IMG/VR virus record: IMGVR_UViG_3300020256_000017
Strand: one strand, 5' to 3'
Source: an uncultured virus (IMG/VR IMGVR_UViG_3300020256_000017)
Taxonomy: Duplodnaviria; Heunggongvirae; Uroviricota; Caudoviricetes
Length of the DNA: 64,000 bases
The position numbers and the translations under genes were made by a program. The notes below the pieces were generated by a model, which was not told the DNA's origin, searched no databases, and worked only from the letters and a program-made list of their open reading frames with translations. Shown here piece after piece: positions 4,647-61,490 of the stretch (within the stretch, counting starts at the first letter, position 1; each line of letters begins with the position of its first letter).

Positions 4647-4845
4647 AACACGTATGACGCCACACCAATTGGTTGATGGTGGTGTATGTGAGGCGGCGGC
4701 CTTGGCTCGTCTACAACTGCATAACGCAGTGCTGATAACGCAACGCAAACATCCATTTACGATGACGCAAAAAACATCATACTTGTTCACGATACGTGAC
4801 AAGTTGAGGAACGTAGACGCAACCTGTCATACTATGAGGAATACG
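4647..4845 (+). ncRNA. Pseudoknot leader RNA L1
   Basis: Promoter TTGACA(4612)-17-GATAAT; CGTCTAC 4708-4714 complementary to GTAGACG 4813-4819 in the loop of hairpin 4797-4829, preceded by GGAAC. Confidence 0.65.
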
Positions 4846-5616
4846 ATGATGTATTATCGCTGCGATAACTGTAACTTTACGCAAAATGAAAGCGAATTTA
4901 ATGCTGTAAGACGTGCAAGTGAGCGCTTCGATAGCGGTCAGTCTTTCACAACCTGCGAATGCCCCCTTTGCTCATGCTTGGCGTACCCTGTCGTAAAAGG
5001 TGAAGTTAACACTTATGTCAACAACCCTATGGCAGAGGTAAAAGACGAAGCGTCACTTTGTGTCACTGAGGAGCACGTCAAGCGCATCCTTGCTGACACA
5101 CTCGATATCACGATAAATACGGATAAAAGTAAAGGGCGAGACCGCCTCCGCGATATTACCTTAAAACTTATCGGCTTCCCGAATGGCGAACAGCAATTCA
5201 AGCAGAGTTTATTGGGTGATGTAACCGTTCACTGCATGGCAGAATACGCCATGCAAGATATTATTGAAACGAGTGATACGAAGCGCTTTACGCTTTATAT
5301 TAATGAAAACACCAATGAAGAGTGGGTGATGCCAGATGCAAGTTCAACCACACTTATGGGTGCAGATAAAGTAAACATCGGCGCTATTGACCAATTTGAA
5401 GAGCATGTGATCGACCGCATTCAGGACGTTTACTCTGTCGTCGCCATTCATGTCCCTGTTGGTTTCGATGGAAGCAGCGAAGATGTTATGGAAACGCTGC
5501 GTAATAAGACTGGGTTTTTGGCTTGTTTTCATGACATCCAAACGACATCAGGCCTTGCTGTGGTACCACGTGATGATATTCCAGAAGGATGTTTTTTAGT
5601 TACGCTTTCGAGTTAG
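4846..5616 (+). CDS. L1-associated protein: zinc ribbon plus shared helical motif
   Basis: CxxC..CPxC; RLRDITLKLIGFPNGEQQF; RBS GAGGAA. Confidence 0.75.
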   Translation: MMYYRCDNCNFTQNESEFNAVRRASERFDSGQSFTTCECPLCSCLAYPVVKGEVNTYVNNPMAEVKDEASLCVTEEHVKRILADTLDITINTDKSKGRDRLRDITLKLIGFPNGEQQFKQSLLGDVTVHCMAEYAMQDIIETSDTKRFTLYINENTNEEWVMPDASSTTLMGADKVNIGAIDQFEEHVIDRIQDVYSVVAIHVPVGFDGSSEDVMETLRNKTGFLACFHDIQTTSGLAVVPRDDIPEGCFLVTLSS

Positions 5617-5625
5617 TGGGTGATC

Positions 5626-5654
5626 AAAAAAAGGGCTGCGCTTGCAGCCCTTTT
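5626..5654. terminator. Intrinsic terminator
   Basis: A7-GGGCTGC..GCAGCCC-T4. Confidence 0.75.
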
Positions 5655-5697
5655 GCTTTATGTTGACAGCACAGGTTGATGTTGATATTATTTTCAC

Positions 5698-5910
5698 CAT
5701 AGCGCTGCCCATTTGCATGTTATGCATCTGATAAGCCGGTGCTTGGGACGGCATCCCTCTACGGCCACTCGCCGACCTGTCTTATGGTCTGCCTGAGTAA
5801 GGTAAACTGCATCAACCACTATTTGCATCAACCACAATATGACTTTTTAGTCGGTTGTTGGGCAATGGCCGAACTCATCACCTTATACCGACGACAAAGA
5901 GGATATTATT
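5698..5910 (+). ncRNA. Pseudoknot leader RNA L2
   Basis: Promoter TTGACA(5663)-17-TATTAT; CGGCCA 5762-5767 complementary to TGGCCG 5866-5871 inside hairpin GTCGGT/ACCGAC (5850-5892). Confidence 0.65.
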
Positions 5911-6525
5911 GTGTTTATTATTATTGATAGCAAACATTCACTCGACCAATTTTCAAAAGACACTGCGCAGCACACGAAGATGCCCGCCACGCGACTGCGA
6001 AGCGCCATCGCAAAAGGGCAAAACTGTGCTGATATTGCGATACTAACCAATCAATTAACACCGGCACCGGTGATTGCTCCCTCTGCGGCTATTGATGGCC
6101 TGTACAACTGGCTAAAAATCCAAGCGAAAGCGGGGGCGTTACTTGACGATACACACGAGGTTAGGGCGTCAGACGTGCTGGCCGCCCTCCCCCCTAAAGC
6201 GCATGTATTTCAACAGAAGCATAGCGATGAAGATGCGCCAAATGATGCATTGAAAGCATGCGAGCAAAAAATAAATATGTGGAAATCACAAGTGTCATCA
6301 AACATATTGGACGCACAGCAAGTGGATGATATGAGCGATGTGCCCGCTGACGCGCACGAGTCTACCGCAGAGGCGTTAAGTGATGATGCGCGAGAGCTGG
6401 CCAACCACCCCTTGTTAAAAGAAGCCCTGGTGACACTTGAGCAGCAAGGCCTGGTTGATGTTGCTGAGATCATGGGCAGCATTGTGAGGAACAGTTTAGA
6501 GTATGACGTATTAACGTCGCGCTAA
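5911..6525 (+). CDS. L2-associated protein, paralog of 60616-61287
   Basis: IDSKHSLDQFS / IDSSQSLDDFS; LYNWL / LYWWL. Confidence 0.75.
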   Translation: MFIIIDSKHSLDQFSKDTAQHTKMPATRLRSAIAKGQNCADIAILTNQLTPAPVIAPSAAIDGLYNWLKIQAKAGALLDDTHEVRASDVLAALPPKAHVFQQKHSDEDAPNDALKACEQKINMWKSQVSSNILDAQQVDDMSDVPADAHESTAEALSDDARELANHPLLKEALVTLEQQGLVDVAEIMGSIVRNSLEYDVLTSR

Positions 6526-6600
6526 ATAAGAAGGGCAAAAGCAATTGGAAAATAGGTCATATGGTGGTATAATTTAACTTCACCACCAAGGAGAAAAGCA

Positions 6601-7056: not shown

Positions 7057-7776
7057 TTACATATTGCAGGCGCTTTTCATTTTATTGATGACGCGCAGTT
7101 CGTGAGGGAAATACTCAAGGGAGTACTTTTTCATAATGCCGTCAAACTCACCCAAATACTCACAGCGGTAAGGTTGATAGGGCGGCATCCAATCAGTCGG
7201 CCCTTTTGCCGATTTCTGCCTGTTTAATGATGCGCTAACAGGGAGAAGGTTGTCCATATCGTTGGCAAAAGCACGCTTTTGAGCGGCGCTCCATTTATCA
7301 CCACCGTGCGCATGCGCATAAGCAAGGGGCACAATGTGGTCAATATCAAGATCGTCGTCGTCATAATAGAATTTGCCGGAGTAGACGCCATACCACTTCC
7401 CCCGTGTCACATAACATCGTTTGATAATGTTATTGTAAAGAACGGGGGTCGTTGAGTGAGCAATCAAGACCTCAGCGCGCGTGTTCTGACAATCATTATC
7501 GTCATCCACCCAGTGTTCCCATGCGTCGCGATCATAGCGTTCGCCTTGCGGCAGGTTGTCTTTCGGTTTGGTGCCGGTGTAATTGCGCGGTGCGCGTCCA
7601 CCAGAATCAATACAGGCCTCCATGGTGGCATAGGCTGTGAAGTTCTTCGTTTTTTCATACCAGCTGCTGCTGGTGTCGTGGCAAATACCGCTACTGCTTT
7701 TCTTTACGACATCAACAGCGAAAGCCGATGTAGACAGAAAGACAGAAAACAGCAAGGTGACAAATGACGTACGCAT
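7057..7776 (-). CDS. Secreted HNH nuclease (DUF1524-like)
   Basis: Signal peptide MRTSFVTLLF..AFA; DIDHIVPL..FANDMDNLLPVSASLNRQK. Confidence 0.85.
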   Translation of the reverse strand: MRTSFVTLLFSVFLSTSAFAVDVVKKSSSGICHDTSSSWYEKTKNFTAYATMEACIDSGGRAPRNYTGTKPKDNLPQGERYDRDAWEHWVDDDNDCQNTRAEVLIAHSTTPVLYNNIIKRCYVTRGKWYGVYSGKFYYDDDDLDIDHIVPLAYAHAHGGDKWSAAQKRAFANDMDNLLPVSASLNRQKSAKGPTDWMPPYQPYRCEYLGEFDGIMKKYSLEYFPHELRVINKMKSACNM

Positions 7777-7882
7777 AGTGTGTCCTTGTTGGTGATTATA
7801 ACGTGGTGATGTTGGCAGCGTGTCATAACAGGCTGCCGTTTCGTGCAACGTACCTAAAAGTGAGAAGTGGCGAAAGTGCACC

Positions 7883-8368
7883 CTATATGGTGCATGCACC
7901 ACCCGCACATCCGCCCTCTGCGGAAGCTAATTCGGCAAGAATTTCTTCTTCAGATCGGCCTCGTGCAGCGGCACGCTCTGCCTCTGTCATCATTGACCCT
8001 GCGGTGCTGCGAGAAGCCGTCAAAAACGCCCCTTCGTTTATCCATTGCTCTACGATGATATCACGAATTTTTTCATCTGGCGTGATGCTGTGAAGTGACA
8101 GGGTTTCGATGATGGTCGCTTCAGCCGCACACACCACTGCTTGTTCATAAAACGACAATGGGCGACGAGTTTCTGTTAAGATGAAGTCAGGGTCAAGCTT
8201 GCCTACCTTCGTGATCACATCCTGCTTGCCCATATTGATGGTGGCTTGAAAGGCTGCGATTGCCGCAATACTGACAAGTGAAGCGATAGATACAGTATTT
8301 TTGTTCTGCTGAACAACGGTGTTCAAATCAGATACAACGGGCGCGAAAAGATTAAAGGTTTTGCTCAT
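7883..8368 (-). CDS. Hypothetical protein with C-terminal CAGGACTI
   Basis: Cassette-driven ORF; tail like that of 56293-56784. Confidence 0.75.
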   Translation of the reverse strand: MSKTFNLFAPVVSDLNTVVQQNKNTVSIASLVSIAAIAAFQATINMGKQDVITKVGKLDPDFILTETRRPLSFYEQAVVCAAEATIIETLSLHSITPDEKIRDIIVEQWINEGAFLTASRSTAGSMMTEAERAAARGRSEEEILAELASAEGGCAGGACTI

Positions 8369-17258: not shown

Positions 17259-19430
17259 ATGACTCACCGTTATTACAGTCCATCGCAACTAAAAAAAATG
17301 TTTAATAGCTGCTGCTCGCGAAAGATGCAGGTCGCACTGAGTGCACCTAATTTCCCCAAGTGTATCATGCGGGATGTATTAGAAAGCGAGACACCGAGAT
17401 TTGTGGCGGGGTACTACGCCAATGCTAAAAGTATTGAGAGTATGGCACAGATGCTCAATCACCCCGCATTTAGCGACAATGAGGTCAGCGAATTGCTGGC
17501 GCTTAATCCTGCGCTGGATGTGCTTTCACTGTACAGCGAGCGAGTGCCAGAGGCACTGTATAACCGTCTTCTCAATCGCGTTATTGATGGTGAGTATTCT
17601 GACGGAAATGTAAGTTTCATGGCGCAGAACATAGTCAATCATCGCGCATTCCCGTGGGAACGTGCTGATGCTATTATTGCAATGAATAATGCATCGCTGC
17701 TTGCTGAAATGGGGCAAGCTGCGTCATGTGATGCTGTATTGAGCGATATCGTTGCTGCTGTTCCACGCGTTGAAGATAAGACGCTCCATACCAACATATA
17801 CATCAAAGTGGCTGAAAACGCCGCATGTTCACGTTCGTTGTTTAATCGCCTGTTAGCGCTGGAAATAGAGCCTAATAGCACATGCCGGATACGCATTGCG
17901 TTGCTAGATAATCACGAACATACGATGGAGCAATTTCGCGAAGTTTTAGCGTATGTGCAAAACAATGCCAATACAGACTGTCGAGCAAGGTATGTATCGG
18001 ATGTGTACGACGCCGCATTTAAAAACGCTGACATGAAGCAATCCGATTTTATTGAGCTGGTTAAGTGCGACGCCTCTCAATACGGTATTGATGAAGGTTT
18101 TCACCGGCTTAATTTCTCAGATGCGCAAGCGGAAGCGATGCTGTTGGAATACCAGGGCAGCTGTGACGCGTTGTGCTACGCCATTCTTGACCGCGTAGAT
18201 ACATTGTCACCGGAGGTCGTTTCACAATTCATCGAGCGCGAGCCTGTTGACTCCTTATTAGTACGCAAGCTGCTAAGCAGTGGTAATGTCCCGTCGGGCA
18301 TCTTGGATATGCTGGCGTACGACCCCGATCACACTATCCAAATGCGTGTCGCGATGCACCCCAATGTCTTAGACAGCACGTTTAAGTGTCTCTACCGCGT
18401 ACGTGAGAGCATTATGAGTTCTAATAAGGATTATGATAAAACACTCTTCAATGAAAGCCCCGCGTTCGCGTTGCTTACGTCATTAAAGAACTACCTCATC
18501 TTGCATAATGATTACGGGTATGATCTGTTTGACTTCAAGAGTGTTAATTCGCCCAAGGCGATGACCAAAATGCTCATTGGTTCAAAACACCCTCAAGAGG
18601 TGCAGTTCTTGTTCGACAGTCAAGAGGCGGAGTCCTTGACCGCACTAAGCGCATTGCAGAGCGTGTTTACCAATTCACGTGGCAAACTCGACCGTCACGG
18701 ATACATTCAGTTTCTTGCGCAGATTAATAGTGCATTAGGCACAGGTAAACAGGCGCAGAAGCGCGCAGGGCTTGCCATTGATGCGCCGTCACTACGCACC
18801 TGTTTGGCTTTTTTGTCACACGATGAAATGGTAGCCGTTGTGATGGATAACGCCATTACCGAAGCGCGAGATGTGTTTCGTATGTTAGCAACGCTCATTG
18901 CACGAGATTGCCCTGATGAAAGCGCCAAACAGTGTGCGTTGGTGCGTAAATGGCTTGCGTCTAAGAAAGACTACGGTGAAGCATTTCATAGCTACTTAAG
19001 CAACAAGCAGCAACGTGACTTCTCAATCAGTACCGTCAATGCGCGTTTCTATCAGGCCGATGCTATTGCGCAGCTTGACACTATCACTGAAAGCCTCCCG
19101 TCACACGTCACACTAACACTGCCGGAGGACACAAAAGCCCTCCGTGCATTAGGTCGTGCTCAACATCACTGTGTAGGCACACGCTACTATGCTGACCGTT
19201 GTACGGATGGCTCAGCGGTGATTTTCGCCCTGTCTACAGGTAATAGGTCTGATGAAACGTTCACCTATCAATTTGAACGCAGTTCGGGACGATTGGCGCA
19301 AGCTAAAGGGTTTTCCAATAGTGACACACCGCCAGAGCTTAATAGCGTGGCGTACGAGGTGTTTAACGCCATTAAAGACGCGTGTGAGGCGGCACGTGAG
19401 CAAGCGGCCTTGCCACAAGAGAATGAATAG
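17259..19430 (+). CDS. Helical-repeat protein with C-terminal PcfJ-like domain
   Basis: LP...L..LG..QHHCVG..Y..RC..G...IF motif; repeats such as VAMHPN, VAENAAC. Confidence 0.75.
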   Translation: MTHRYYSPSQLKKMFNSCCSRKMQVALSAPNFPKCIMRDVLESETPRFVAGYYANAKSIESMAQMLNHPAFSDNEVSELLALNPALDVLSLYSERVPEALYNRLLNRVIDGEYSDGNVSFMAQNIVNHRAFPWERADAIIAMNNASLLAEMGQAASCDAVLSDIVAAVPRVEDKTLHTNIYIKVAENAACSRSLFNRLLALEIEPNSTCRIRIALLDNHEHTMEQFREVLAYVQNNANTDCRARYVSDVYDAAFKNADMKQSDFIELVKCDASQYGIDEGFHRLNFSDAQAEAMLLEYQGSCDALCYAILDRVDTLSPEVVSQFIEREPVDSLLVRKLLSSGNVPSGILDMLAYDPDHTIQMRVAMHPNVLDSTFKCLYRVRESIMSSNKDYDKTLFNESPAFALLTSLKNYLILHNDYGYDLFDFKSVNSPKAMTKMLIGSKHPQEVQFLFDSQEAESLTALSALQSVFTNSRGKLDRHGYIQFLAQINSALGTGKQAQKRAGLAIDAPSLRTCLAFLSHDEMVAVVMDNAITEARDVFRMLATLIARDCPDESAKQCALVRKWLASKKDYGEAFHSYLSNKQQRDFSISTVNARFYQADAIAQLDTITESLPSHVTLTLPEDTKALRALGRAQHHCVGTRYYADRCTDGSAVIFALSTGNRSDETFTYQFERSSGRLAQAKGFSNSDTPPELNSVAYEVFNAIKDACEAAREQAALPQENE

Positions 19431-20331: not shown

Positions 20332-20332
20332 G

Positions 20333-24916: not shown

Positions 24917-25888
24917 TTATGCCAAGCCAGTAAATGCTTGGCGTCGAAGATCGTTCTCATGGAGGTGTATACCGCCGCCAAAGCAGGGGGTGTCGTTATG
25001 CGCCAAGATGAACATCATCGATGCCGGAGAAAAATGCAGCGTGTACCCATCCAATAAGGCATAGGTGTGTATGTCGTCACTGATTGAGAGCGGTGCGAGT
25101 GGCAGCAATGCGGCTGATAGTGGAACGGTAAGTGCCCCCTCCAACACCCCCTCTTCAAGAAAAACGGTTAGGAGGTCTAGCTCACTATCAACGACATCCT
25201 GGGAAACCGAGAATATCGCCATATCCGAGAGCGTGTAGCGTTTCATCACCTCGTCGCTATCCAGTGCAAAGGGAATGCCGGCGCTTGTAGTTAACATCAT
25301 TGATTCAAGCAGGGTGAATGCCTGTGTCGCCATTGTTCTGTCTGACATTTTAATGCCATCAAATAGGCCATCTCTTGACATTGATAGCACAACCGCAGGC
25401 GCATCGCTTTTTGACGTGATACAGGTTGCGAGCTCTTCATCAGTGGCAGGGTAGGCCTCATCCATAGCAAGGAGCTCAAAACGTTCCTCAATACGGTCGT
25501 GCTCGAAATCGCTGTCCTCTAAGGCGATGGCATCAAGTACAGAAAAATGGACACCGACTTCAACCAAGTAGTCGGGCGCATAATCTTCGTACTTGTTTTT
25601 GTGTAAAAATTCCCAGCGGCGAACATGCGTCACATTATTGTAATGCGCGAACATTTCATGGGTGTTGTTAAAGCCAAGCAGTGTGGCTGTGATGTCGTCG
25701 GCAACGCGTGCGTCGAGATTATTATCGCCTTTTGAGCCAATGGCCTTGCTCATTGCAGCCTGGACAGCAGGGTCGTCAATGGTGTGTGATAGCAAGATGG
25801 CAAGCTTATTCGGGGAGAATGATTCTCGCAGCGAGTCTCGTAGCCCCTGCATGTGTGATTTAGACACGATCTGTTGACGTAATGACAT
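24917..25888 (-). CDS. L3-associated protein
   Basis: RBS GAGGAA; DDITATLLGFNNTHEM. Confidence 0.75.
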   Translation of the reverse strand: MSLRQQIVSKSHMQGLRDSLRESFSPNKLAILLSHTIDDPAVQAAMSKAIGSKGDNNLDARVADDITATLLGFNNTHEMFAHYNNVTHVRRWEFLHKNKYEDYAPDYLVEVGVHFSVLDAIALEDSDFEHDRIEERFELLAMDEAYPATDEELATCITSKSDAPAVVLSMSRDGLFDGIKMSDRTMATQAFTLLESMMLTTSAGIPFALDSDEVMKRYTLSDMAIFSVSQDVVDSELDLLTVFLEEGVLEGALTVPLSAALLPLAPLSISDDIHTYALLDGYTLHFSPASMMFILAHNDTPCFGGGIHLHENDLRRQAFTGLA

Positions 25889-26055
25889 AAGGTGTTCCTC
25901 ATTAGTGGTGCGCTTGTGCCCCGTTCCCAATCGCACCTAAGGTATTATGCCGTTGTATGTAACGTACCACAGGTGAATAGGTAAAGATGTTGCTTACGAT
26001 TTTGGCCAAAGGGGCGGCGTAGGTCGTATGGCCTACACTCCATCGGAGCAACTTA
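25889..26055 (-). ncRNA. Pseudoknot leader RNA L3
   Basis: Promoter TTGACT at 26084; GCCCC (26015-26011) complementary to GGGGC (25922-25918), after GGAAC, in hairpin GGTGCG/CGCACC. Confidence 0.65.
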
Positions 26056-38356: not shown

Positions 38357-38413
38357 GTCTCTCTCCTGTTGTGTTGACAGGATTAGTATCTCAAAAACTG
38401 AGAGTGTTGTCAA
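38357..38413 (-). promoter_or_regulatory. Exemplar cassette: sigma70 promoter with extended -10, conserved leader and RBS
   Basis: TTGACA ACACTCTCAGTTTTTGA GATACT AATCC TGTCAACACAACAGGAGAGAGAC ATG: -35, 17-bp spacer, TGn extension, -10, leader, SD. Confidence 0.9.
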
Positions 38414-42115: not shown

Positions 42116-42742
42116 TTATCTGTCTTGTGCCGAACGGGCATTGCGAAGCGCATCCGTGACACTCTCAACATCAGATTGAAAGCGCTCTAGGGCGCGATAT
42201 TTCTCCGCAGCCTGTTTAACAGGCAACATGGTGTCGTCGGTCACTTCATCAAACTCTGCGTGAAGAAACTGCGCAATACGTGGTGGGAAAGCAATCAACA
42301 CTTCGTTTATAGCGTCAGTGCCAGACTCAATAACGTCTTCAAGGCGGTCGCACAAGCGATCCCAACGCTCAAACTCATCGACCGCAGCATGGTGCTCATC
42401 GCTGAGTAAATCCCACATGACGGCAAAGGGTGCATCGCTTCCCCAATCAGGGTGCGAAACGAGAGAGCCTTTAAATGTGATGGCTTCACCAAGCTCTATG
42501 GGAAGTAAGTCAGAATGCGGATAGTTGGCGTAAAGAAGCCCTCGCAGTGCGATAACGTCCGATGGCAGTGGTTTGTCATCGTTACACGTGACAGTTGCGT
42601 TGTCTCGTGCCTGTATGCTTCTGTAGCCTTCATGCTTAGTAAGAACATCAAGGACGGTGCTCTGTTTGACGTGTTTTGCGTTGTCTTTAGTTTGACAAGC
42701 AGTAACAATGGCAGTGGCAAGGTGGCGTAATGGGTTGCTCAT
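42116..42742 (-). CDS. L4-associated protein
   Basis: RBS GGAGAA; STVLDVLTKHEGYRSIQA. Confidence 0.75.
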   Translation of the reverse strand: MSNPLRHLATAIVTACQTKDNAKHVKQSTVLDVLTKHEGYRSIQARDNATVTCNDDKPLPSDVIALRGLLYANYPHSDLLPIELGEAITFKGSLVSHPDWGSDAPFAVMWDLLSDEHHAAVDEFERWDRLCDRLEDVIESGTDAINEVLIAFPPRIAQFLHAEFDEVTDDTMLPVKQAAEKYRALERFQSDVESVTDALRNARSAQDR

Positions 42743-42940
42743 AATAGCGTTCTCCGAATGTGAATGTTCAAGCCCTACCAATTAACCTTGAAGCCTCACG
42801 CGGTAAACGATTATAAACGTAAGTGTGCATTCAATGGTGCAAGAGTGGCCGGTTTGTATAAAACAAACACCCAAAGGGCGGTAGGCGGCGTGTGCTGCAA
42901 CACACATTTCGGTCATTGCGTCGTAACGCTCTCGAAACTT
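42743..42940 (-). ncRNA. Pseudoknot leader RNA L4
   Basis: Promoter TTGACT at 42973; CCTACC (42885-42880) complementary to GGTAGG (42779-42774) in hairpin TTCAAG/CTTGAA. Confidence 0.6.
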
Positions 42941-42989
42941 AGTTAATAATACCAGTTCGGAGATATAAGTCAATACAAAAAATGGGGGG

Positions 42990-47153: not shown

Positions 47154-47816
47154 TTATGCTTTTGAGGCGTCGCCATCAAGGATGTTTTCTGGCGTGTCCT
47201 TATATATTTCAGTTAACACTTTGTGGCGATAATAGCGCGCCATAATCAATGCTGACGCGTAACTTACCATGACGACGGTAAGGTGGACGTCAAAGATCAC
47301 AAAGCAGGCACCTACCGCCGCACCTATTGCGGTATAGAGCATATCAAGCTTTGATTTAAGTAACGAATAGTCAGCGCAACCTGCGGTAACAATGCTGGTG
47401 GTTTGGTTGAGTATGGGCGACATAATAATATTTGAAGAATACGTAACAATTGTCGCAATCGGCAATATCACGTGAGGAAAAACGTCATAGATTGTAAGCA
47501 TATAGAAAACAAAAGCGAGCACCTCAAAACCAATAGCGATATGAAAGGTTCTCATAGGATGCTCTTTAGCCATTTTCCCTAAGGCAGGAATAAAAATAGC
47601 AAGGCCAAGTACTGACAGTGCATAGTTTTTGAGTACTAGTCCATCTGCATTAAATAAATCAACGTACAACATAACAATTGCTGCACCCAGCAGGGCGTTG
47701 ACAAACAGCAGATAGAAAGACATGATTTGTTGATTGCGGCGAAGCGGCGACAATGCCGCCACCTCTTTTATTAAATTCACGCGCGTTGTTCTCTCTGTTT
47801 TTGTTTCTCGAACCAA
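47154..47816 (-). CDS. Multi-pass membrane protein (half-MFS-like)
   Basis: About six hydrophobic helices. Confidence 0.65.
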   Translation of the reverse strand: MVRETKTERTTRVNLIKEVAALSPLRRNQQIMSFYLLFVNALLGAAIVMLYVDLFNADGLVLKNYALSVLGLAIFIPALGKMAKEHPMRTFHIAIGFEVLAFVFYMLTIYDVFPHVILPIATIVTYSSNIIMSPILNQTTSIVTAGCADYSLLKSKLDMLYTAIGAAVGACFVIFDVHLTVVMVSYASALIMARYYRHKVLTEIYKDTPENILDGDASKA

Positions 47817-48706
47817 CGATGACCCAGTGTCAACGCTTGTAAAGCCAGCTCCCTCTCGGCGTCACGTGATGCTTCATCAGGAGAGCACACGTCATCATCA
47901 CCTAACCGAACGTTTTCGCGTAAGTAATCTGACATTATGTCGTTGAATAAGTCAAAAACATAATGGCCATTGTTGCACGGCTCACTGGATGTGACAGATT
48001 CAATGTCGTCGCCATCAAGCTCAACAGAAACAAACTCATCGTCAAATTCAGCATACTCATTGTTTTTAACTTCCCAAAGAACATTGATGCTGTGGCCACC
48101 AAAAAGGAAAGAGACCTTAACCTCATAGGCATCACTGCCTGAACGGCTAAACATGGGGGCGTCTAGGTCTTTAATGCGGAATTTAAACGACGATTTGTGT
48201 TCAATAAGTTTGTCGCGGTAGTAAGCACACAGGGCTGCATTGCTTGTCCATGGTGAAAGCGCATCTCCTTTTACAGCAGCTGCATCACCAGCATTGTCGG
48301 TTAACAATTTAAGTAGCTTATTGTAAGCGCGTTCAGATTCTCGCTCATAATGTTGCATGTCGTTGATCAGACTCAATGCGTTTTTCAACATACCCTTCGC
48401 CGCATTAAAATCATTGTGCGTGGGCGAGAGTGGCGCATCTGCATCGCGCTTCAAAAGGGCATAATTCTGACCGGTAAGGATCGTTGCCAATGTTTCTTGC
48501 GCGCGCTTTCTGTCCATGGGTGTATCTTCAAGCGTAAGCGTATCGAGTTGATGGCGTAGCGTATCCAGTTGTGTTTTGTCCTCATCATTGGCTTTGTAGG
48601 CCATCTGCTTAATGGCAGCGGAAACACGATCGCGTGAGGTATGAAGCGTCATGCTGTTACGTAGACGTGTAAGGGCCGCATTGATAAATGAAGTAGTGAA
48701 TTTCAT
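47777..48706 (-). CDS. L5-associated protein
   Basis: RAQETLATILTGQNYALL. Confidence 0.75.
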   Translation of the reverse strand: MKFTTSFINAALTRLRNSMTLHTSRDRVSAAIKQMAYKANDEDKTQLDTLRHQLDTLTLEDTPMDRKRAQETLATILTGQNYALLKRDADAPLSPTHNDFNAAKGMLKNALSLINDMQHYERESERAYNKLLKLLTDNAGDAAAVKGDALSPWTSNAALCAYYRDKLIEHKSSFKFRIKDLDAPMFSRSGSDAYEVKVSFLFGGHSINVLWEVKNNEYAEFDDEFVSVELDGDDIESVTSSEPCNNGHYVFDLFNDIMSDYLRENVRLGDDDVCSPDEASRDAERELALQALTLGHRWFEKQKQREQRA

Positions 48707-48875
48707 GATTGTACTGTTTCCGTTTTCGGTTCAGTTTAACAGCTCGTTCCTCCCTTGCGCCTGTTATTGGAGAACCGCTGGTGACAGTAGTTTCAATAAA
48801 AATCAGGTCGGTGTAACTTGCTAATATGGGCCTTACCCGTTAGGGCGGAGGAGGCAGTCGCTATTAGCGGCGACA
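48707..48875 (-). ncRNA. Pseudoknot leader RNA L5
   Basis: Promoter TTGCAT-17-TAATAT at 48909; TCCTCC (48852-48847) complementary to GGAGGA (48753-48748) in hairpin TAACAG/CTGTTA. Confidence 0.6.
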
Positions 48876-49815: not shown

Positions 49816-50628
49816 TTAACGTTTTTCTATTTTACCGGATGCTAAAAACATCTGTTGGCATGCGATGTCACCGCAATTTAACGTCAAGTCGCACACCGGC
49901 GACAATGTTCGAATTAGCTCATGGCCAATCCCGTTGACGAGAAAGGGGATAATGGGTTCGTCACCTTCATCAAACGTAGAGGTTGTTAATCCAGTTAACG
50001 AGGAGAATAATTTGCCGCCCTCATGAAGTGAGATGCTTGTCGCTTGACCAAATCCCATTTCCATCTCGCTACTAAAGTATTCGGTGATGTCATTTTGCGT
50101 CTCAAGTTCTACTTCGTATCCAATATCACAGGCAGAGAGATCAGCATCATCAAACAATGCTAATGTTGCATCAACGATAAGTTTACCGAAGGCCCTAGAG
50201 TATTCAACGTTGATAATAACGCCAAGATAGCAGGTGGTTTTTTCAGGATCGTCGGTGTATCCCGTCGTTTTTATGGTTAATAATGGAAGGTTCATAAACC
50301 AGCTAGGGGCTGGGTCGCTACCTGAAATCACTCTACCCACTTCGCCAACACGCGCAACACGCGACATCATGGGGCTAAGTAGTGTGCTGATGAAGGTTGC
50401 AGGATCGTCAAAATTGTCGCTGACTTTTTCATCAAGTAACGCTGATAGCTTGTTTGCGTTTGATGTGCCCATCATGTCAGCGAAATAAGCGAACAATTTG
50501 GCGGGTTTTTGGGTGTTTCCGAAGTGCTTGGCGTTCACGTCATTCATGTGCTGACGCAATGCCTTTGCATCATCTTTAGTGCGCAGAGCATTAACAAGCG
50601 TGGTGAAAAATAACTTAGGTGTATTCAT
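49816..50628 (-). CDS. L6-associated protein
   Basis: RBS GGAGAA; LFAYFADMMGTSNANKL. Confidence 0.75.
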   Translation of the reverse strand: MNTPKLFFTTLVNALRTKDDAKALRQHMNDVNAKHFGNTQKPAKLFAYFADMMGTSNANKLSALLDEKVSDNFDDPATFISTLLSPMMSRVARVGEVGRVISGSDPAPSWFMNLPLLTIKTTGYTDDPEKTTCYLGVIINVEYSRAFGKLIVDATLALFDDADLSACDIGYEVELETQNDITEYFSSEMEMGFGQATSISLHEGGKLFSSLTGLTTSTFDEGDEPIIPFLVNGIGHELIRTLSPVCDLTLNCGDIACQQMFLASGKIEKR

Positions 50629-50810
50629 ACATCATTCTCCGTATTGCGTGTCTGTTTCTTGCCTTCCCGGGGTGATGACACGCTACAGTTCATAATGTAA
50701 ACGTGGATTGCTAAATGATAGCGTAAAGTTCATCGTTAATGATATTTGCAAGCGCATGGCGCCGGAAGGCTGCTAGGTTCTCACCTGTGTTTGCCGCACA
50801 TCACTGTGAA
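50629..50810 (-). ncRNA. Pseudoknot leader RNA L6
   Basis: GCCTTCC (50770-50764) complementary to GGAAGGC (50667-50661) in hairpin GCGTGTC/GACACGC. Confidence 0.6.
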
Positions 50811-50904: not shown

Positions 50905-51120
50905 TTATCTTTCAATAAGCAGCACTATTCGACTGTCATTCTGCGAGAAGCATAAGTCTTCGTGCGAGTGAACTGTTCGCCGGATGTTGGCGATGCGTGC
51001 GCCATTCGATGGAGAGCCTTGTTGCGCGTCAGGGTAAAGCGCGTTCATTATTCCCCAGTCGGAATCGCTTCCATTAGGCTGCGTTCGCAAATAAGTCAAT
51101 ATTCGGTCGACAAGTTTCAT
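50905..51120 (-). CDS. Small possible winged-helix protein abutting the IS end
   Basis: ATGA overlap with iscB stop. Confidence 0.6.
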   Translation of the reverse strand: MKLVDRILTYLRTQPNGSDSDWGIMNALYPDAQQGSPSNGARIANIRRTVHSHEDLCFSQNDSRIVLLIER

Positions 51121-52502
51121 CGTGTCAAGACAAGGAAACCCGGTACTTTAGTGCCGGGAGGAATTGCCGCTCCATAGTTAAAGTTATAACCATCACTGCG
51201 TTGGATTATCCGACAATGTTTGTGGGATATTCCCTGCACAGCGCCCGATTCGCTTTGGATATTAAAGTAGCCGTTTTTGCGAACAGCAACTCTTCCAATA
51301 TGCAAACCTTGTTTCTTTCCAGTTGGGACATTGGCTGTAACCAAGTCTCCTGTTCTGAATCCATAAACGACAGAGGATGTTTTGGCTGACGTTCTGGGAA
51401 AACCATACTTGTCAACCCGACACATCTGTCGCGATCCATGTCCTTTTGCCGAAGCAACAAGGATGTGATGACATTCCAGTACTACCGCGCTTCCGTTTTG
51501 ACCGATGCAGGCGGCATCAATCCAGTGGTCTTTGGTGTGACCTTGCTCTGAACGGTTCTTTTTGGTCAGGCCGCCTGACCAAAATTGCGTGTTTGGAATA
51601 ATGTATTTGATGCTGTTGCCGACAGCATAACGTGTGGCGTTGACCGCAGCGGCGTCTCTGAGTGAAGGGCGGTATCCGTCCATGATGCGCTGCATGTTTC
51701 TGGCGCGTGTCAGGTTCAGTTTGTCACCACGCTGTTTGCATAGCGACATCCATGCGTTGGGGTGTAAGCTGCCTTTGTCCACGTTACATTCCCGGCAACT
51801 GATGACATGATTGGCCAAGCGGTTGGAGCCACCCAGCGCTTTAGGAGTGACATGCTCTTTTTCCAACACCAGGTCCTTTGTCAAGCCATGACAATAAGCG
51901 CAGATATGCTGGTGGCGATAAAGTAAGTATTCGCGCAGCTCCCAGCCAAACAGTGAGCCCTGTTGATACTCCTTTCCGGCAATGTCTGGGTTTTCGATAA
52001 GTTGGGTATCAAAACGTACTGTTTCGACATTGGCCGACGTGATAGGCACGAACCTGCTCAGGCGTTTTGTCCACGTTTCTACGTTGTAAACCCGTGACAT
52101 CAGCGAAGGCGGTAACCATCCCGCTGGACGGGTTCGATTCAGAAAACGCGGTTTACGATAGCGTGTTTTGCGATGACGACGCGAACGCCTGATAGTCCGA
52201 CGGCTTTCCAAAGCGTCACGTATTTGTTGTCCACGATGGACAATGTGCTGACCGTAGACGGCAACCTGATCTCGTTGAAATAGCGCTACCAGTGCAATCC
52301 CGGTGGTCTTGCTGCCCGGATCGACATTTAACGCCACAGGCTGCGTTTCGCCGCCTTGTCGTTCTTTCAGTACAATAGTGAAAGGGTACCGACGAAACAC
52401 CGCTGCTTTTCCATCACGCAGGAGCTGACGCGCCCTTGCAGGACGGCAAGGCATTAAAGGTTGTTTCTGATTGTCGAGTACCAAGACTCTCACGTTACCC
52501 AA
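51117..52502 (-). CDS. iscB: RNA-guided endonuclease IscB (PLMP, split RuvC, bridge helix, HNH)
   Basis: PLMPC motif; VDPGSKTTG; RRTIRRSRRHRK; VETVRFD; CAYC..EHVTP..GGSN..CRECN; DHWIDAAC. Confidence 0.95.
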   Translation of the reverse strand: MGNVRVLVLDNQKQPLMPCRPARARQLLRDGKAAVFRRYPFTIVLKERQGGETQPVALNVDPGSKTTGIALVALFQRDQVAVYGQHIVHRGQQIRDALESRRTIRRSRRHRKTRYRKPRFLNRTRPAGWLPPSLMSRVYNVETWTKRLSRFVPITSANVETVRFDTQLIENPDIAGKEYQQGSLFGWELREYLLYRHQHICAYCHGLTKDLVLEKEHVTPKALGGSNRLANHVISCRECNVDKGSLHPNAWMSLCKQRGDKLNLTRARNMQRIMDGYRPSLRDAAAVNATRYAVGNSIKYIIPNTQFWSGGLTKKNRSEQGHTKDHWIDAACIGQNGSAVVLECHHILVASAKGHGSRQMCRVDKYGFPRTSAKTSSVVYGFRTGDLVTANVPTGKKQGLHIGRVAVRKNGYFNIQSESGAVQGISHKHCRIIQRSDGYNFNYGAAIPPGTKVPGFLVLTR

Positions 52503-52764
52503 TCTCCAAAATTAATGTCTGTTACCAGAACGTTCTCCGCATAAAGCGGGTAATGTTTGCCTCGACCTTGTTATTCGGAGGTTTGATGAAAACGACACTG
52601 GCTTAACCCATTACACCTGTTTAATCGTTTCCCGCAGGGCGTGGAACTGGCAAGTCATCCCACGGTGCCTATACATTCTCTGATAACGGCTCCATTGTTT
52701 ACCCAATGGGGTCTGGTCAACATAGTGCTTTACAAGCCTGCCCCTTTAGGGGTGGGTAGTTGAC
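51121..52764 (-). mobile_element. Non-autonomous IS200/IS605-family element carrying iscB and omega RNA
   Basis: Terminal hairpins with CTAAAG cores (CCCACCCCTAAAGGGGCAGG; CCCGGCACTAAAGTACCGGG) flank iscB; no tnpA. Confidence 0.85.
52505..52764 (-). ncRNA. omega RNA / HEARO-type scaffold
   Basis: GTCAACTACCC..CTAAAG..GCTTG..GTTGACCAG..CGTT..ATAGGCAC..GGATG..CCAGT..TTAAACAG..GTCGAGG..TTACC directly upstream of iscB. Confidence 0.85.
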
Positions 52765-53241: not shown

Positions 53242-53336
53242 GTCATTCTCCTGTTGTGTTGACAGGATTAGTATCTCAAAAACTGCGAAGGTTGTCAATG
53301 CCTCGTGTCTCTATTTTGAACACGAGGCATGACATG

Positions 53337-55581: not shown

Positions 55582-56190
55582 CTAAAAAGGAATATCGTCA
55601 TCAAAGTCAAAATCTGGTTCTGCCATAGGTGGGTTCTTACCAGCGTTCTGACCGCCTTGATTTTGATTACCGCCACCTTGGTTGCCACCGCCATTATTGC
55701 CGCCTTGGTTCTGGTTGTAACCACCTTGATTACCGCCGCCTTGGTTTTGGTTGTTGCCTTGGTTGTAACCGCCACCTTGATTTTGGTTATTGCCTTGGTT
55801 GTAACCGCCACCTTGATTTTGGTTGTTGCCTTGGTTTCCACCGCCATTGTTATTGCGACCGCCTAGCATTTGCATCTGATCGACAATGATTTCAGTAGTG
55901 TACCTGTCTTGGCCCTGCTGGTCTTGCCATTTGCGCGTTTGAAGTTTACCTTCAACGTAAATTTGTGAACCTTTTTTAAGGTACTCTCCAGCAATCTCAG
56001 CCAGTCGGCGATACATGGTAAGTCGGTGCCATTCAGTGCGTTCCTGAACTTGACCCTGCTGATCTTTCCAGCTTTCGCTTGTTGCTAGACTTAAGTTGGC
56101 AACGGCATTGCCGTTAGGCATGTAGCGCACCTCAGGATCGTTCCCAAGATTACCTACAAGGATGACTTTGTTTACGCCCTTAGTGGCCAT
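55582..56190 (-). CDS. ssb: Single-stranded DNA-binding protein
   Basis: [34 protein letters not shown] linker; DFDDDIPF tail; start corrected to lie after cassette. Confidence 0.98.
55650..55850 (-). repeat. 36-bp tandem coding repeat in SSB linker
   Basis: ([12 protein letters not shown])x~3 plus degenerate units. Confidence 0.85.
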
Positions 56191-56292
56191 AAATGTTTCC
56201 TTTGTTATCTGTTGTGTTGGCAGAATTAGTATCTCAAAAACAGTGTATGTTGTCAAGAAAACTTTGTTTTATTAGTGTGAAAGTTGGCCGTG

Positions 56293-59020: not shown

Positions 59021-59611
59021 TCACAAGGTGTGAGCATTGTCAATGTTTTCACTGTTGTTTACCGCCAATCTCAACAAGGGCGCGCATGCGCGTTGTCGTG
59101 GCAGATCAACGTTAATCCCCCACGTTAAAATAGTCGGGCGAGACTCGTAGGCAGCGCGGTCAAAATAAAGCTTTCCAGACGGGTTGGGCTTTTTCTTTCG
59201 GTAGATGGCTTCGATTTCTCCACATAGTACATCGCCATGGTTAAGCGCTTGGATGATGGTTGTCACATAACGGTGTGAAAACTCATGGTTAATGCCGCAG
59301 GACTTTAACCACATTCCCATTTTATTGACCGCATCAAGCGTTAAGCTCGCGCCGACATAGCAACGTTTTGGCGTATGTATCACCCCCTGGCGTAATGCCA
59401 AGGGGAGAAGCTCGACTTTACGTGAGCGCGTGTCGTAAACTCGGACTGTCAATGTGCCCACAATCTCATGCTTGTGTCGGGGGCTAGGGATAGCCGGAAG
59501 CTGAGAATGAGGGTTGATCAGCGGGTATTGGGTTTGCGGTGCCACCCACGTCAAGGTGGCATCGTTATACACTAATCTTTGGTTGCTCTCATGAAGCAGT
59601 ATGCTGCTCAT
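59021..59611 (-). CDS. Hypothetical protein
   Basis: GAGGTG RBS; follows the L7 gene. Confidence 0.6.
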   Translation of the reverse strand: MSSILLHESNQRLVYNDATLTWVAPQTQYPLINPHSQLPAIPSPRHKHEIVGTLTVRVYDTRSRKVELLPLALRQGVIHTPKRCYVGASLTLDAVNKMGMWLKSCGINHEFSHRYVTTIIQALNHGDVLCGEIEAIYRKKKPNPSGKLYFDRAAYESRPTILTWGINVDLPRQRACAPLLRLAVNNSENIDNAHTL

Positions 59612-59612
59612 A

Positions 59613-60263
59613 TCAACGCACCTCGCTGTGCGATGTTGTGACCACATCTTTCGCGGACTTAAGAGACAGCGCTGGGCGGTTGTCGATAAACACTTCTTTT
59701 AGCAATGGGTCGGCGCAAATGGCATGATACACATCCAGCATCTTTTCGATGCCAACAAAAATCTCTGACTCGTCGAGCCACTGTGCATCGCGGCTACCTT
59801 CAAGCAATAACATCGGAGCATAAGGCAGGTGTGAGAGCGGGATTTCAATGGCACCGACCATCCCACTACCATAATTTTTACCGATAATGAAATAGGCGTA
59901 TTTGCCCGGAATATGGAAGCTGATGCGGTAGTCGACTGTAATGTCATCCTTCTCTGCATTGGCATCCCACGCGCGCGCTTCAAAGTTTAAATCAAGGTAC
60001 TCGTCATCCCCAGTGCCCCAGTCTTGCAAAAACGTAAGTGGCGCCATAGCGTTACGCAAGCGTGTCTCCAGTGAGGCATTATTAATTGAGAAGTCCGCGG
60101 TAGGGAGGTGCTCATTATCTTGCCCTAAGATGGTGGCCAGCGCTTTTCTCACCAATGCATCACGCGTAACAGGACGTCCTTTTTGGAATCCTTCCAGTGC
60201 GCGTCGGGTGTTGTTCATTAACGTGGCGCGATCAGCGCCCAAGATAGTAACAGGTGTAGACAT
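59613..60263 (-). CDS. L7-associated protein
   Basis: RBS GGAGAA; VRKALATILGQDNEHL. Confidence 0.75.
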   Translation of the reverse strand: MSTPVTILGADRATLMNNTRRALEGFQKGRPVTRDALVRKALATILGQDNEHLPTADFSINNASLETRLRNAMAPLTFLQDWGTGDDEYLDLNFEARAWDANAEKDDITVDYRISFHIPGKYAYFIIGKNYGSGMVGAIEIPLSHLPYAPMLLLEGSRDAQWLDESEIFVGIEKMLDVYHAICADPLLKEVFIDNRPALSLKSAKDVVTTSHSEVR

Positions 60264-60490
60264 ATCATTCTCCAAGTGAGTCGTAATCATCATTGTGCAT
60301 CTCGTTCCAATTGCGACTCGTCAAGTAACGTTATGTCGAAAAAGGGGTGTGTTGTCTTTATTAAGTGAAGACGTTGCCAGTATTAGCCATGAGTGCGACG
60401 GTACTGTGTACTGTTGCACCTGAGACGCGACGAAGGTCTGGAGCCTCCCTCTGCTGTTACCACGCACCGCAGTGTAGGGTCGAGCAGGTA
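60264..60490 (-). ncRNA. Pseudoknot leader RNA L7
   Basis: Promoter TTGACA-17-GATAAT at 60524; GCGTCTC (60428-60422) pairs with GAGATGC (60303-60297, one GU), after GGAAC, in hairpin GAGTCG/CGACTC. Confidence 0.65.
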
Positions 60491-60568
60491 TAATGATTAT
60501 CTCACCGCCTGTGAGTGATGTCAATGCCTATCAGAACAATTACGCTATTATTGAAAATAAACAAGAAT

Positions 60569-60592
60569 AAAAAAGCCCGTCGTGCGGGCTTT
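60569..60592 (-). terminator. Intrinsic terminator
   Basis: AAAGCCCG..CGGGCTTT with T-tract on - strand. Confidence 0.7.
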
Positions 60593-60615
60593 GAGTAATT
60601 AGTGAGAGCATGATG

Positions 60616-61287
60616 CTACAGGATATGCGCGAGGTGATCTTCTGCCGCTTTCGTTTCTGTCATCTCGGCAAGAAGGTTTGCAAAATCTTGCATGCCCTCA
60701 CGTTCAAGTAGCGCCAAGGCTTTCCCATAATCATCATGGTTAAACAATTTTCGATTGAGCGCTTCAACGTCATCCTGAACCGCGTGATAATGCTTTGTCT
60801 CCAACTGCGTTTCGCTGTCGACATCCGCATGCTGAAGGGCATGTTTCGTCATGTCGGAAAGTATACCATCGCGTTTAGCGGTGATTTCCTCTGCACGGTT
60901 CGTGATAGGTTTACCTGATGCCTGTTGTTGTCGCATCATATCAAACAAAGGCGATAACATGTCCTGCAACGCTTTTGAGTCAACCTCACCATTGCTATCA
61001 AAATACATCTCAGTGTTCATGTCGATGTTATCATCAAGCCACCAGTAAAGATCTTGAAGACCCTTTATCGTTTTATCGGCAAGACGAACATCTGGGGCGC
61101 TAATGTGTGGTGCAAGCGCGCTCTCAAGCGCCTTGATATGGCTGAAACCTAAGGTTTTGCTTATCGTACTTTTGACGTGCGTCTTTTTCAGCTTTGTAAG
61201 ATCAGCGAATGCGGCGGAAAAGTCATCTAAGCTCTGTGAGCTGTCGATAACAAGATTGTTATTGCGAAGCGAAAATGTAATTTGCAT
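60616..61287 (-). CDS. L8-associated protein
   Basis: VKSTISKTLGFSHIKAL. Confidence 0.75.
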   Translation of the reverse strand: MQITFSLRNNNLVIDSSQSLDDFSAAFADLTKLKKTHVKSTISKTLGFSHIKALESALAPHISAPDVRLADKTIKGLQDLYWWLDDNIDMNTEMYFDSNGEVDSKALQDMLSPLFDMMRQQQASGKPITNRAEEITAKRDGILSDMTKHALQHADVDSETQLETKHYHAVQDDVEALNRKLFNHDDYGKALALLEREGMQDFANLLAEMTETKAAEDHLAHIL

Positions 61288-61490
61288 AAGGATACCGTCC
61301 TATCAATGTTGTGGCATGGTAGAGTCCGACCCGTTCCTCCTTGCCACCATGATAATGTCCGGTGTCAATCAAGGGTGTTGCTGGCGGTTTTCCAGTGACG
61401 CTTATGCGTAACCCGGCGAGCGGGTGGGTCGTAGAGGGGAGCTGCCCCATGAGATGACTGACACATGCAAAGCAAGTGCATCTCACAAAA
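61288..61490 (-). ncRNA. Pseudoknot leader RNA L8
   Basis: CGACCC (61431-61426) complementary to GGGTCG (61332-61327), after GGAAC, in hairpin CATGGT/ACCATG; shares TTTGCATGT, CCCTCTACG and CTCGCCG with L2. Confidence 0.65.

Follow-up and report, generated by a model that had tools for sequence, protein, structure and literature searches.

The window, that is, the whole stretch of 64,000 nucleotides analysed here, is organised as a PeSL-like array in which about 45 promoter cassettes, each with one gene, follow one another; it is carried by a giant marine metagenomic element of uncultured source. A short cassette leader (TGAGAYACT-N6-GTCAACACAAC-RBS) precedes about 37 of its genes, and eight others are preceded by long leaders. 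The question raised by this locus is whether these leaders belong together, and what they might do. On balance, we favour the reading that the eight leaders, ten when L9 and L10 from related contigs are counted, form a single family of structured 5' untranslated regions that act in cis.

Genomic context

The window contains 45 promoter-like sites and repeat families with 31-36 copies, and the -10/leader pattern of the short cassette has 20 exact matches versus 0 expected. The cassette units carry near-identical promoters and leaders and are preceded by terminators; their genes are orphans, and the strains are mosaics in which identity falls abruptly and some stretches are replaced between relatives. 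PeSL stands for promoter-early stem-loop and denotes short repeated cassettes of T4-type phages (PMC4122927). The defining arrangement of a PeSL-type array, a repeated early promoter and stem-loop flanking unrelated small genes, was found in the window; its one-gene units resemble PeSL, but the eight genes considered here do not use the short leader. No phage hallmark gene was found among the loci examined of this "phage-like" element, whose contigs are up to 486 kb long. The element is widespread in marine metagenomes and also occurs in RNA libraries, and the stretch is contained in 20 runs of 12 studies; the RNA-library contigs that cover the region are long and may be DNA. The remaining long intergenic gaps of the window are accounted for by small ORFs, so the eight leaders are essentially all of its long leaders, apart from HEARO-IscB: one true copy of the HEARO RNA (52550-52764; Rfam RF02033, 136 bits) precedes IscB.

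Layout of the individual leaders

Each of the eight genes lies behind its own sigma70-like promoter. An earlier sequence-only reading had reported the eight long leaders, each with two complementary segments (here strands A and A'), and both were found exactly where it placed them. The common order of elements starts with at least one 5' hairpin, followed by hairpin P1, a linker of 3-4 nt (7 in L9), strand A, and hairpin P2. Strand A is C/U-rich and 5-7 nt long, and P2 begins 0-1 nt after it (L3 has no such P2). The next 50-90 nucleotides are variable and contain additional hairpins; after them comes strand A', which is rich in G/A, lies 92-125 nt downstream of A and is often preceded by (GG)AAC; the layout ends 16-25 nt 5' of the ribosome-binding site (Shine-Dalgarno). 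For the originally quoted pairs the A-A' distance is 93-125 nt. The hairpins flanking A have energies of -3.8 to -9.4 (P1) and -5.5 to -10.8 kcal/mol (P2), L3 excepted.

On the plus strand, leader L1 (4647-4845; promoter 4612-4640, ATG at 4846) comprises P1 (4690-4703), A (CGTCTAC, 4708-4714), P2 (4716-4730), GGAAC (4808-4812) and A' (4813-4819) in an enclosing hairpin (4796-4830), and its A:A' helix is part of the predicted minimum-free-energy (MFE) structure with a mean pair probability of 0.97. Leader L2 (5698-5910; promoter 5663-5691 with a terminator directly upstream, GTG at 5911) comprises P1 (5745-5757), the linker TCTA, A (CGGCCA, 5762-5767), P2 (5768-5797) and A' (5866-5871) in a hairpin at 5850-5892; the ddG of A:A' is 1.2.

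The other six lie on the minus strand. Leader L3 (25889-26055; ATG at 25888) is the weakest member, with P1 (26017-26038), A (GCCCC, 26011-26015) without a P2 directly after it, and GGAAC followed by A' (GGGGC, 25918-25922) in a hairpin at 25907-25937 (ddG 2.5). In leader L4 (42743-42940; promoter 42946-42973, ATG at 42742), P1 (42890-42905), A (CCTACC, 42880-42885), P2 (42869-42879) and A' (42774-42779; hairpin 42767-42792) are present, and A:A' is within the MFE structure (0.77). Leader L5 (48707-48875; ATG at 48706) has P1 at its extreme 5' end (48857-48874), the linker TGCC, A (TCCTCC, 48847-48852), P2 (48835-48846) and A' (GGAGGA, 48748-48753; hairpin 48737-48766); its A:A' has a ddG of 2.8, and a helix shifted by one register reaches a probability of 0.94. 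Leader L6 (50629-50810; ATG at 50628) consists of P1 (50775-50786), the linker AGCA, A (GCCTTCC, 50764-50770), P2 (50751-50763) and A' (50661-50667; hairpin 50646-50683), with a ddG of 1.7. Leader L7 (60264-60490; promoter 60496-60524, ATG at 60263) contains P1 (60432-60448), A (GCGTCTC, 60422-60428), P2 (60392-60420), and GGAAC followed by A' (GAGATGC, 60297-60303) in a hairpin at 60278-60319; A:A', which includes one G.U, is within the MFE structure (1.00). Leader L8 (61288-61490; promoter 61494-61521, ATG at 61287), with A:A' in the MFE structure as well (0.60), has P1 (61436-61448), the linker TCTA, A (CGACCC, 61426-61431), P2 (61411-61425), and GGAAC followed by A' (GGGTCG, 61327-61332; hairpin 61315-61351). 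GGAAC thus directly precedes A' in L1, L3, L7 and L8, as had been noted from the sequence.

Two further leaders were found in related contigs. The new long leader L10 occupies 5587-5718 of contig L050, recurs in L001 and L020, and runs directly up to GAGGA-N7-ATG; L9 was spotted by eye.

Excess of the layout over chance

The layout was captured in a strict and a relaxed descriptor, whose tuning relied on the very eight leaders of the window that they then scored. The strict descriptor gave 8 distinct matches on both strands of the window: L1, L4, L5 and L8 with a 6-7-nt A, and four others, all with a 5-nt A and all outside leaders. With A of at least 6 nt, the strict layout was absent from ~126 kb of other natural sequence and occurred in 5 of 10 leaders versus 0-0.3% of shuffles (300 per leader). 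The relaxed descriptor, the only one matched by L2 and also matched by L6, captured 7 of 10 leaders versus 0-1.3% of shuffles; L3, L7 and L9 failed both. On 90,831 held-out bases from related contigs, the strict descriptor gave 7 distinct matches, two of them with at least 6 nt. One of these two is L10, the sole true hold-out member; one more long leader in the held-out DNA (L009, ~915-1085) was without such a layout. The flank energy of A ranked at 0.014-0.39 among all positions (rank test, Fisher 1.8e-4).

It is the whole layout, not the short pairings, that is beyond chance, and these data support a recurring family of leaders that are divergent in sequence, similar in shape and without a match in Rfam. 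Such an excess bears on the possibility that no common fold exists, the leaders being long, locally G+C-rich 5' UTRs with ordinary hairpins and the layout a product of selection by observers among many hairpins and short complements. A loose version of the layout indeed matches hundreds of window sites (492 and 270 collapsed matches on the two strands). The absence of the strict layout from other natural sequence, its rarity in shuffles and the recovery of L10 argue against this possibility, which we regard as unlikely. In 6 of 10 leaders, both new ones included, A' is immediately preceded by AAC, and this adjacency is independent of the choice of A' and therefore counts against a selection artefact.

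Pairing, folding and strain variation

The 5-7-nt A:A' pairings are not above chance. When the longest Watson-Crick match between the loop and the upstream region was compared with 2000 dinucleotide shuffles, the p values for L1-L8 were 0.10, 0.65, 0.88, 0.30, 0.36, 0.06, 0.94 and 0.40 (Fisher 0.35), and L2 and L7 have an equal or longer complementary match elsewhere than the quoted pair. The claim that the segments always pair is right in that all eight pairs are present, but equally good short pairings arise in shuffled leaders. The description of these pairs as covarying is not supported, since they were picked by complementarity and their differing spelling is not phylogenetic covariation. 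The leaders have no sequence similarity to each other and could not be aligned, so neither a covariance model nor an R-scape-type test is applicable. This dissimilarity and the chance-level pairing both fit the absence of a common fold, as do the unremarkable folding energies (z -2.1 to +0.2) and the frequency of high-probability long-range helices in controls (7 of 10 leaders versus 38% of 200 shuffles and 32% of 95 natural controls). The antisense strand is more stable than the sense strand in 9 of 10 leaders, a composition effect that lends no support to the sense strand.

Around each A', the hairpin described just 5' of the RBS is present as an uninterrupted 5-8-bp stem, though it is statistically weak (p 0.02-0.44 each, Fisher 0.015) and competes with local hairpins of greater stability that form part of the nested fold. 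When the full leaders are folded without crossing pairs, A:A' enters the MFE structure in 5 of 10, so that the pseudoknot proposed earlier is not needed there; in the other five, A:A' costs 0.6-2.8 kcal/mol. Judging from these predicted folds, our preference is that A:A' would close a nested multi-branch domain rather than form a pseudoknot with the 3' hairpin loop.

Between strains, 31 substitutions fall on 902 predicted paired positions versus 49 on 729 unpaired ones, and 14 of the 31 break their pair. Three strain variants and one RNA-run contig have A-U in place of the G.U of L7 (60426). In P2 of L2, a G-C pair of the local fold changes to A-U via two changes, which in the global constrained fold do not compensate each other. 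Leader L1 is 99% identical between strains and its protein 71%, and L5 is 88% identical and its protein 64%; conserved leaders beside diverged genes may be mere marks of recombination breakpoints.

The encoded proteins

The orphan proteins downstream, numbered like their leaders, are acidic, with a neutral to basic N-terminal region of 60 residues. On the plus strand, protein P1 (4846-5616; 256 aa, pI 4.5) carries ITLKLIGFPN at residue 104, and protein P2 (5911-6525) has 204 aa. On the minus strand are proteins P3 (24917-25888; 323 aa, with a confident structure model), P4 (42116-42742; 208 aa, N-terminus resembling that of P6), P5 (47777-48706; 309 aa, its neighbours being ~100% identical between strains), P6 (49816-50628; 270 aa), P7 (59613-60263; 216 aa, LATILGQDNEHL at 42) and P8 (60616-61287; 223 aa, ISKTLGFSH at 42). 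Protein P8 has 3 homologous clusters in 5.8 billion. Homology among the eight is demonstrable for P2/P8 only (E 2.8e-10).

A helical motif had been ascribed to all eight proteins. It is real in the P3 family (30 clusters), in which the N-terminal ~135 aa are conserved, with the core LGFxNxHEMF. The strict pattern occurs in 0 of 8 proteins, a middle pattern in 3 of 8 versus 0 of 97 other ORFs, and a loose post-hoc pattern in 7 of 8 versus 7 of 97; sharing beyond the P3 family is loose and not significant (hhalign E 0.055-0.52; motif HMM E 0.3-6). In the P3 model, the motif forms the turn of a helix-turn-helix (HTH)-like helix pair, and residues 5-87 weakly resemble DNA-binding HTH domains (TetR N-terminus, sigma region 4) with Z 3.5-4.4 over 41-50 residues, within noise, as is the best Z of the whole search (5.0). 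Foldseek against PDB and BFVD returned nothing at E<=0.001 for this model. Pfam (E<=1) gave no family for five of the eight proteins and unrelated weak rows for the other three (E 0.07-0.18); the suspected resemblance to Glyoxalase_8 was found neither there nor among 29 P3 homologues. A small helical element near the N-terminus is plausibly common to the eight proteins.

It was proposed that A' sits in the loop of the pre-RBS hairpin, forms a pseudoknot with A, and that the helical motif lets each protein bind the leader of its own gene, for autoregulation or RNP formation. The stem around every A', the loose-motif protein behind each long leader of the family, the predicted HTH-like turn and the neutral-basic N-termini are consistent with this. 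We nevertheless consider it rather improbable, given the weakness of the stems, the non-significant motif sharing, and a leader-motif co-occurrence that may reflect only common descent of leader and gene start. Decidedly improbable is an extension to at least ten RNA-protein modules, in which the A:A' spelling would be a private address read by the basic, HTH-like LGFxN N-terminus of the encoded acidic protein, giving feedback loops or RNPs with diverse effector domains.

Comparison with known RNA families

At the gathering threshold, Rfam 15 matched only HEARO (52550-52764) in the whole window. No row was obtained in any leader at E<=5 (window) or E<=10 (4500-6000), nor in L9 or L10 at E<=1 (L008 and L050); the Rfam comparison that the sequence-only reading had recommended therefore leaves the leaders without a family. 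They resemble the HEARO/IscB omega RNA in being ~200-nt structured RNAs directly 5' of a partner ORF, but RF02033 is not matched even at E<=5, and the proteins lack RRXRR, RuvC and HNH. In type III toxin-antitoxin systems (ToxI-like), a pseudoknotted RNA lies just upstream of the partner protein gene, as a short unit in tandem repeats followed by a terminator. The leaders contain no direct-repeat family and no common sequence, and they continue into the gene. Autoregulatory structured leaders include the T4 gene 32 5' pseudoknot, E. coli rpsO/S15 and the alpha-operon S4 pseudoknot, and the present leaders are like them in their predicted folded domain, with long-range or pseudoknot pairing just 5' of the RBS of their own gene. 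Those are single, sequence-conserved elements with a known binding protein, whereas here ten copies occur in one element, spelled wholly differently and without an Rfam model.

Proposed role and remaining alternatives

The sequence itself displays the layout in excess of chance, without an Rfam counterpart, together with promoters and terminators belonging to these genes and with acidic orphan proteins encoded downstream; that the elements fold in this way in RNA and act in cis, and what they do, we infer. The long-range A:A' helix would clamp the hairpins into one compact domain, which most likely would control the mRNA after transcription. The domain might stabilise the 5' end and give the ribosome a standby (landing) platform, or it might be a protein-binding platform, possibly for the gene's own product.

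A CsrA-type global RNA-binding regulator of the host would use the GGA beside A' and that of the Shine-Dalgarno as a site pair. CsrA usually binds a pair of spaced GGA sites. GGA adjoins A' in 7 of 10 leaders (GAGGAAC, GGGAAC, TGGAAC, GGAGGAAC, GGGAGGAAC, GGGAAGG, AGGACAAC), and most start sites of these genes have GAGGA or GGAG. L2 and L4 are without GGA there, however, the triplet is short and frequent in purine-rich RNA, and P1-A-P2 and A:A' are left unexplained, which makes this reading very improbable. It is hardly more credible that P1, P2 and the 3' hairpin, each also a DNA palindrome and different per leader, are inverted-repeat operators for transcriptional autoregulation by roadblock by HTH-like proteins such as P3, because the long-range A:A', AAC and the fixed order and spacing would be unexplained, the start of transcription is 40-190 nt upstream of the sites, and the fold resemblance is within noise.

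Implications

The leaders probably represent a new kind of leader-borne control element on eight orphan genes. If real, they would constitute an undescribed RNA structure class, without an Rfam model and present at least ten times over in a single uncultured marine element, and tied to an undescribed protein family that has no Pfam entry, no structural match and only unnamed metagenome relatives. Such elements would then run a second, more elaborate mode of expression beside their uniform promoter cassettes. With the shape kept and every letter changed, the leaders are hard to find by alignment and would therefore be a test case for structure-first searches.

Shared layout of the leaders

Eight genes of the window are each preceded by a leader of about 165-230 nt (L1-L8), as the sequence-only reading had described, and each of these genes also has its own promoter. 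Four of the eight promoters stand directly behind the terminator of the preceding gene, and the remaining long gaps of the window are occupied by small ORFs. All eight complementary pairs quoted for the leaders were located, with their strands 93-125 nt apart, and GGAAC was found immediately 5' of the 3' strand in L1, L3, L7 and L8. The small upstream ORFs in L1, L3, L4 and L8 were mutually dissimilar and lacked ribosome-binding sites.

As evidence by themselves, the pairings do not rise above chance: when the longest Watson-Crick match of the loop to the upstream region was scored against dinucleotide shuffles, it was equalled in 6-94% of shuffles (Fisher 0.35), and L2 and L7 contain a match of equal or greater length elsewhere in the leader. 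The hairpin proposed around the 3' strand has a 5-8-bp stem in each leader but is statistically weak (Fisher 0.015), and the folding energies of the leaders are ordinary (z -2.1 to +0.2). The differing spellings of the pairs had been taken as covariation. No similarity between leaders was detected by nhmmer and MAFFT gave no usable alignment; because the leaders have no detectable common sequence, differing spellings do not constitute covariation in an alignment. A test of cognate against non-cognate gap-loop combinations (p 6e-5) was not counted, since the gap itself is defined from the 5' strand and the test is circular.

The context of this 5' strand (A) is constant: a stable hairpin (P1), a 3-4-nt linker, A, and a second hairpin (P2) 0-1 nt further on, L3 being the exception with no P2 right behind A. 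By the stability of the flanking hairpins, the position of A was in the top 1-11% of positions in seven of the eight leaders (Fisher 1.8e-4). A loose description of the layout P1-linker-A-P2...A', in which A' is the complementary 3' strand before the ribosome-binding site, had hundreds of matches in the window. The strict descriptor, a formal search pattern for this layout, had eight distinct matches on both strands, namely L1, L4, L5 and L8 with strands of 6-7 nt, and four further matches outside the leaders, each with strands of 5 nt. Since the eight window leaders had served to tune the descriptors, only the results from held-out related contigs are clean evidence. Among 90,831 held-out bases, the strict descriptor had seven distinct matches, two of at least 6 nt; one of these is L10 (L050:5587-5718), a long leader new to the set, which has a promoter and a terminator of its own, stops at GAGGA-N7-ATG and is kept in two further contigs. 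Another new member, L9 (L008, about 2867-3056; TTCACCC with GGGTGAA), was found by eye; its 7-nt linker puts it outside the descriptors. A further held-out long leader (L009:915-1085, plus strand), beginning with the standard GTCAACACAC cassette start, is without the layout; a 26-codon ORF is possible in it.

With strands of at least 6 nt, the strict descriptor recovered 5 of the 10 real leaders against 0-0.3% of shuffles, and the relaxed descriptor 7 of 10 against 0-1.3% (300 shuffles per leader in both cases). AAC adjoins A' on its 5' side in six of the ten leaders, L9 and L10 among them, and A' was chosen without regard to it. Reading this AAC as part of an integron attC site was rejected, as there is no GTT partner and no integrase and every gene has its own promoter. 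The whole layout thus exceeds chance; the pairing by itself does not.

Topology of the predicted long-range helix

When only nested folding was allowed, the helix A:A' was part of the minimum-energy structure of L1, L4, L7, L8 and L10, and forcing it in the other five leaders cost 0.6-2.8 kcal/mol. In the nested fold A:A' closes a multi-hairpin domain, and the 3' hairpin on which the pseudoknot had been built competes with more stable local hairpins. A probable long-range helix was predicted for 7 of the 10 leaders, compared with 38% among shuffles and 32% among natural controls; this result is not strong evidence, because shuffles and controls often show such a helix too, and A:A' may instead form a pseudoknot. 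The antisense strand of the leaders folds more stably in 9 of 10 (by a mean of 6.2 kcal/mol), and the comparison of sense with antisense was set aside as uninformative, since the coding (minus) strand is A+C-rich.

Variation between strains

Between strains, substitutions were rarer at positions predicted to be paired (31/902) than at unpaired ones (49/729), counted over variants as listed, which are not independent. Of the 31 at paired positions, 17 keep the pair and 14 break it. In the clamp (A:A') of L7, G.U is replaced by A-U in three variants and one contig from an RNA run, and in hairpin P2 of L2 two changes turn G-C into A-U in the local fold, while the global fold pairs the same bases otherwise.

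L1 is 99% identical between strains where the protein behind it (protein P1) is 71% identical, and L5 is 88% identical where protein P5 is 64%. Such conservation of leaders beside diverged genes may reflect selection or merely recombination breakpoints. Sharp islands of 58-86% nucleotide identity amid 98-100% were observed at 4900-5650, 47800-48700 and 61050-61250, that is, in the genes of proteins P1 and P5 and the 5' part of that of P8. With paralogue matches set aside, 2 of 8 leader genes had less than 80% protein identity between strains, compared with 20% of 95 others, and they are not clearly more variable.

Proteins encoded behind the leaders

The proteins encoded behind the leaders matched no Pfam or PHROG family, and clear homology was found only between P2 and P8. 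A search of 1.84 billion representatives yielded 30 relatives of protein P3, all unnamed metagenome proteins, encoded on contigs as long as 220 kb and many alike only over the first 135 residues. The motif noticed in the sequence-only reading corresponds to the core of this family (ADxLxAxMLGFxNxHEMFAHY). The predicted model of P3 is confident (pLDDT 88) and places the motif where helix 60-70 turns into helix 76-85, in an N-terminal part that is helical and precedes alpha/beta domains; no structural relative of the model was found, the best ESM Atlas score (0.78) being under the lead threshold. The alignment of P3 homologues was too diverse for finding their loci, and P0034 was absent from viral_contigs. 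P7 predicted alone gave an unusable model (pLDDT 41).

The claim that one helical motif occurs in all eight proteins holds for the P3 family, but for the others the profile matches are non-significant or absent. The best profile alignments of P7, P10 (the protein behind L10) and P1 with the P3 family fall exactly on the motif (E 0.055-0.16, not significant), and P8 gave none. A motif HMM ranked P7 3rd, P8 6th, P6 8th, P5 9th and P1 13th among 107. Five of the proteins start with MSTP, MSNP or MNTP, and all ten are acidic proteins whose N-terminal part is neutral to basic. A small domain common to the leader-gene proteins is plausible.

Genomic setting

The window is not an ordinary chromosome. 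About 45 sigma70-like promoters were found in it, each before one gene and, with few exceptions, on the minus strand. They belong to a stereotyped cassette with the order TTGACAAC, 12 nt, TGAGAYACT, 6 nt, GTCAACACAAC, ribosome-binding site and ATG (for example 38368-38413 and 53253-53298, minus strand). Exact matches numbered 10 for the long form of the pattern and 20 for the short form, with 0 expected for either, and repeat families of the window reach 31-36 copies. In the cassettes, the -35 TTGACA forms an inverted repeat with the TGTCAA with which the transcript starts; a second inverted repeat in the spacer changes on both sides together (TCTCA..TGAGA; elsewhere CTCACA..TGTGAG or CACA..TGTG), which suggests an operator or hairpin. 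The pattern had no match in viral_contigs or genome_contigs, and 77 stretches with it were found in marine metagenome contigs, including contigs of 486, 290 and 230 kb. The 486-kb contig shares 99.99% identity with parts of the window, and further parts are 78-98% identical to other strains.

No relatives of the window were found in phage and plasmid collections, and no phage or plasmid hallmark gene in the window and the related DNA examined. The layout matches that of the PeSL cassettes of T4-type phages (PMC4122927). A plasmid leading region is another possible fit, with which SSB and a PcfJ-like protein would agree. Only a few of the 92 other ORFs scanned matched Pfam families: SSB (55582-56256, minus strand), the PcfJ-like protein (17259-19430, plus strand, opposite to most genes), a GmrSD_C/HNH protein (7057-7908, minus strand), IscB, a trypsin-like peptidase, a deaminase-like protein and weak GIY-YIG rows, one of them in the ORF directly upstream of L4 (42990-43619, minus strand). 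The C-terminal part of SSB, encoded by 36-48-nt direct repeats (55651-55842), forms a long Gly/Asn/Gln-rich tail. IscB (461 aa, RRXRR and HNH) lies directly behind a complete HEARO (omega) RNA of 136 bits (together 51117-52764, minus strand). This unit looks like an insertion, because 51125-52764 is without a match in several loci of other strains, where different DNA stands. A TnpB-like gene was observed at L008:8352-9869.

The stretch 59600-61600 is present in 20 public marine runs from 12 studies, six of the runs being RNA libraries, whose contigs contain the whole stretch in long pieces. In one RNA run a contig ends with adapter at 60472, leaving the L7 promoter uncovered, a weak hint only. 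One of the runs carries the label of a named (coded) organism and contains 99% of the stretch's words, so there may be a cultured or binned genome of the host.

Possible function and novelty of the leaders

A literature search on pseudoknot leaders in hyperplastic bacteriophage DNA gave no paper; large catalogues of candidate phage RNAs exist (PMC10690425) and might include the motif.

The predicted leader domain would stop 16-25 nt before the Shine-Dalgarno sequence and leave it free, which makes simple masking unlikely; better candidates for its role are stabilisation, a standby platform and a protein-binding platform, and binding of each leader by its cognate protein would be an attractive possibility. 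In the best-supported account, the leaders form one family of structured elements acting in cis, which came with a diverging gene family.
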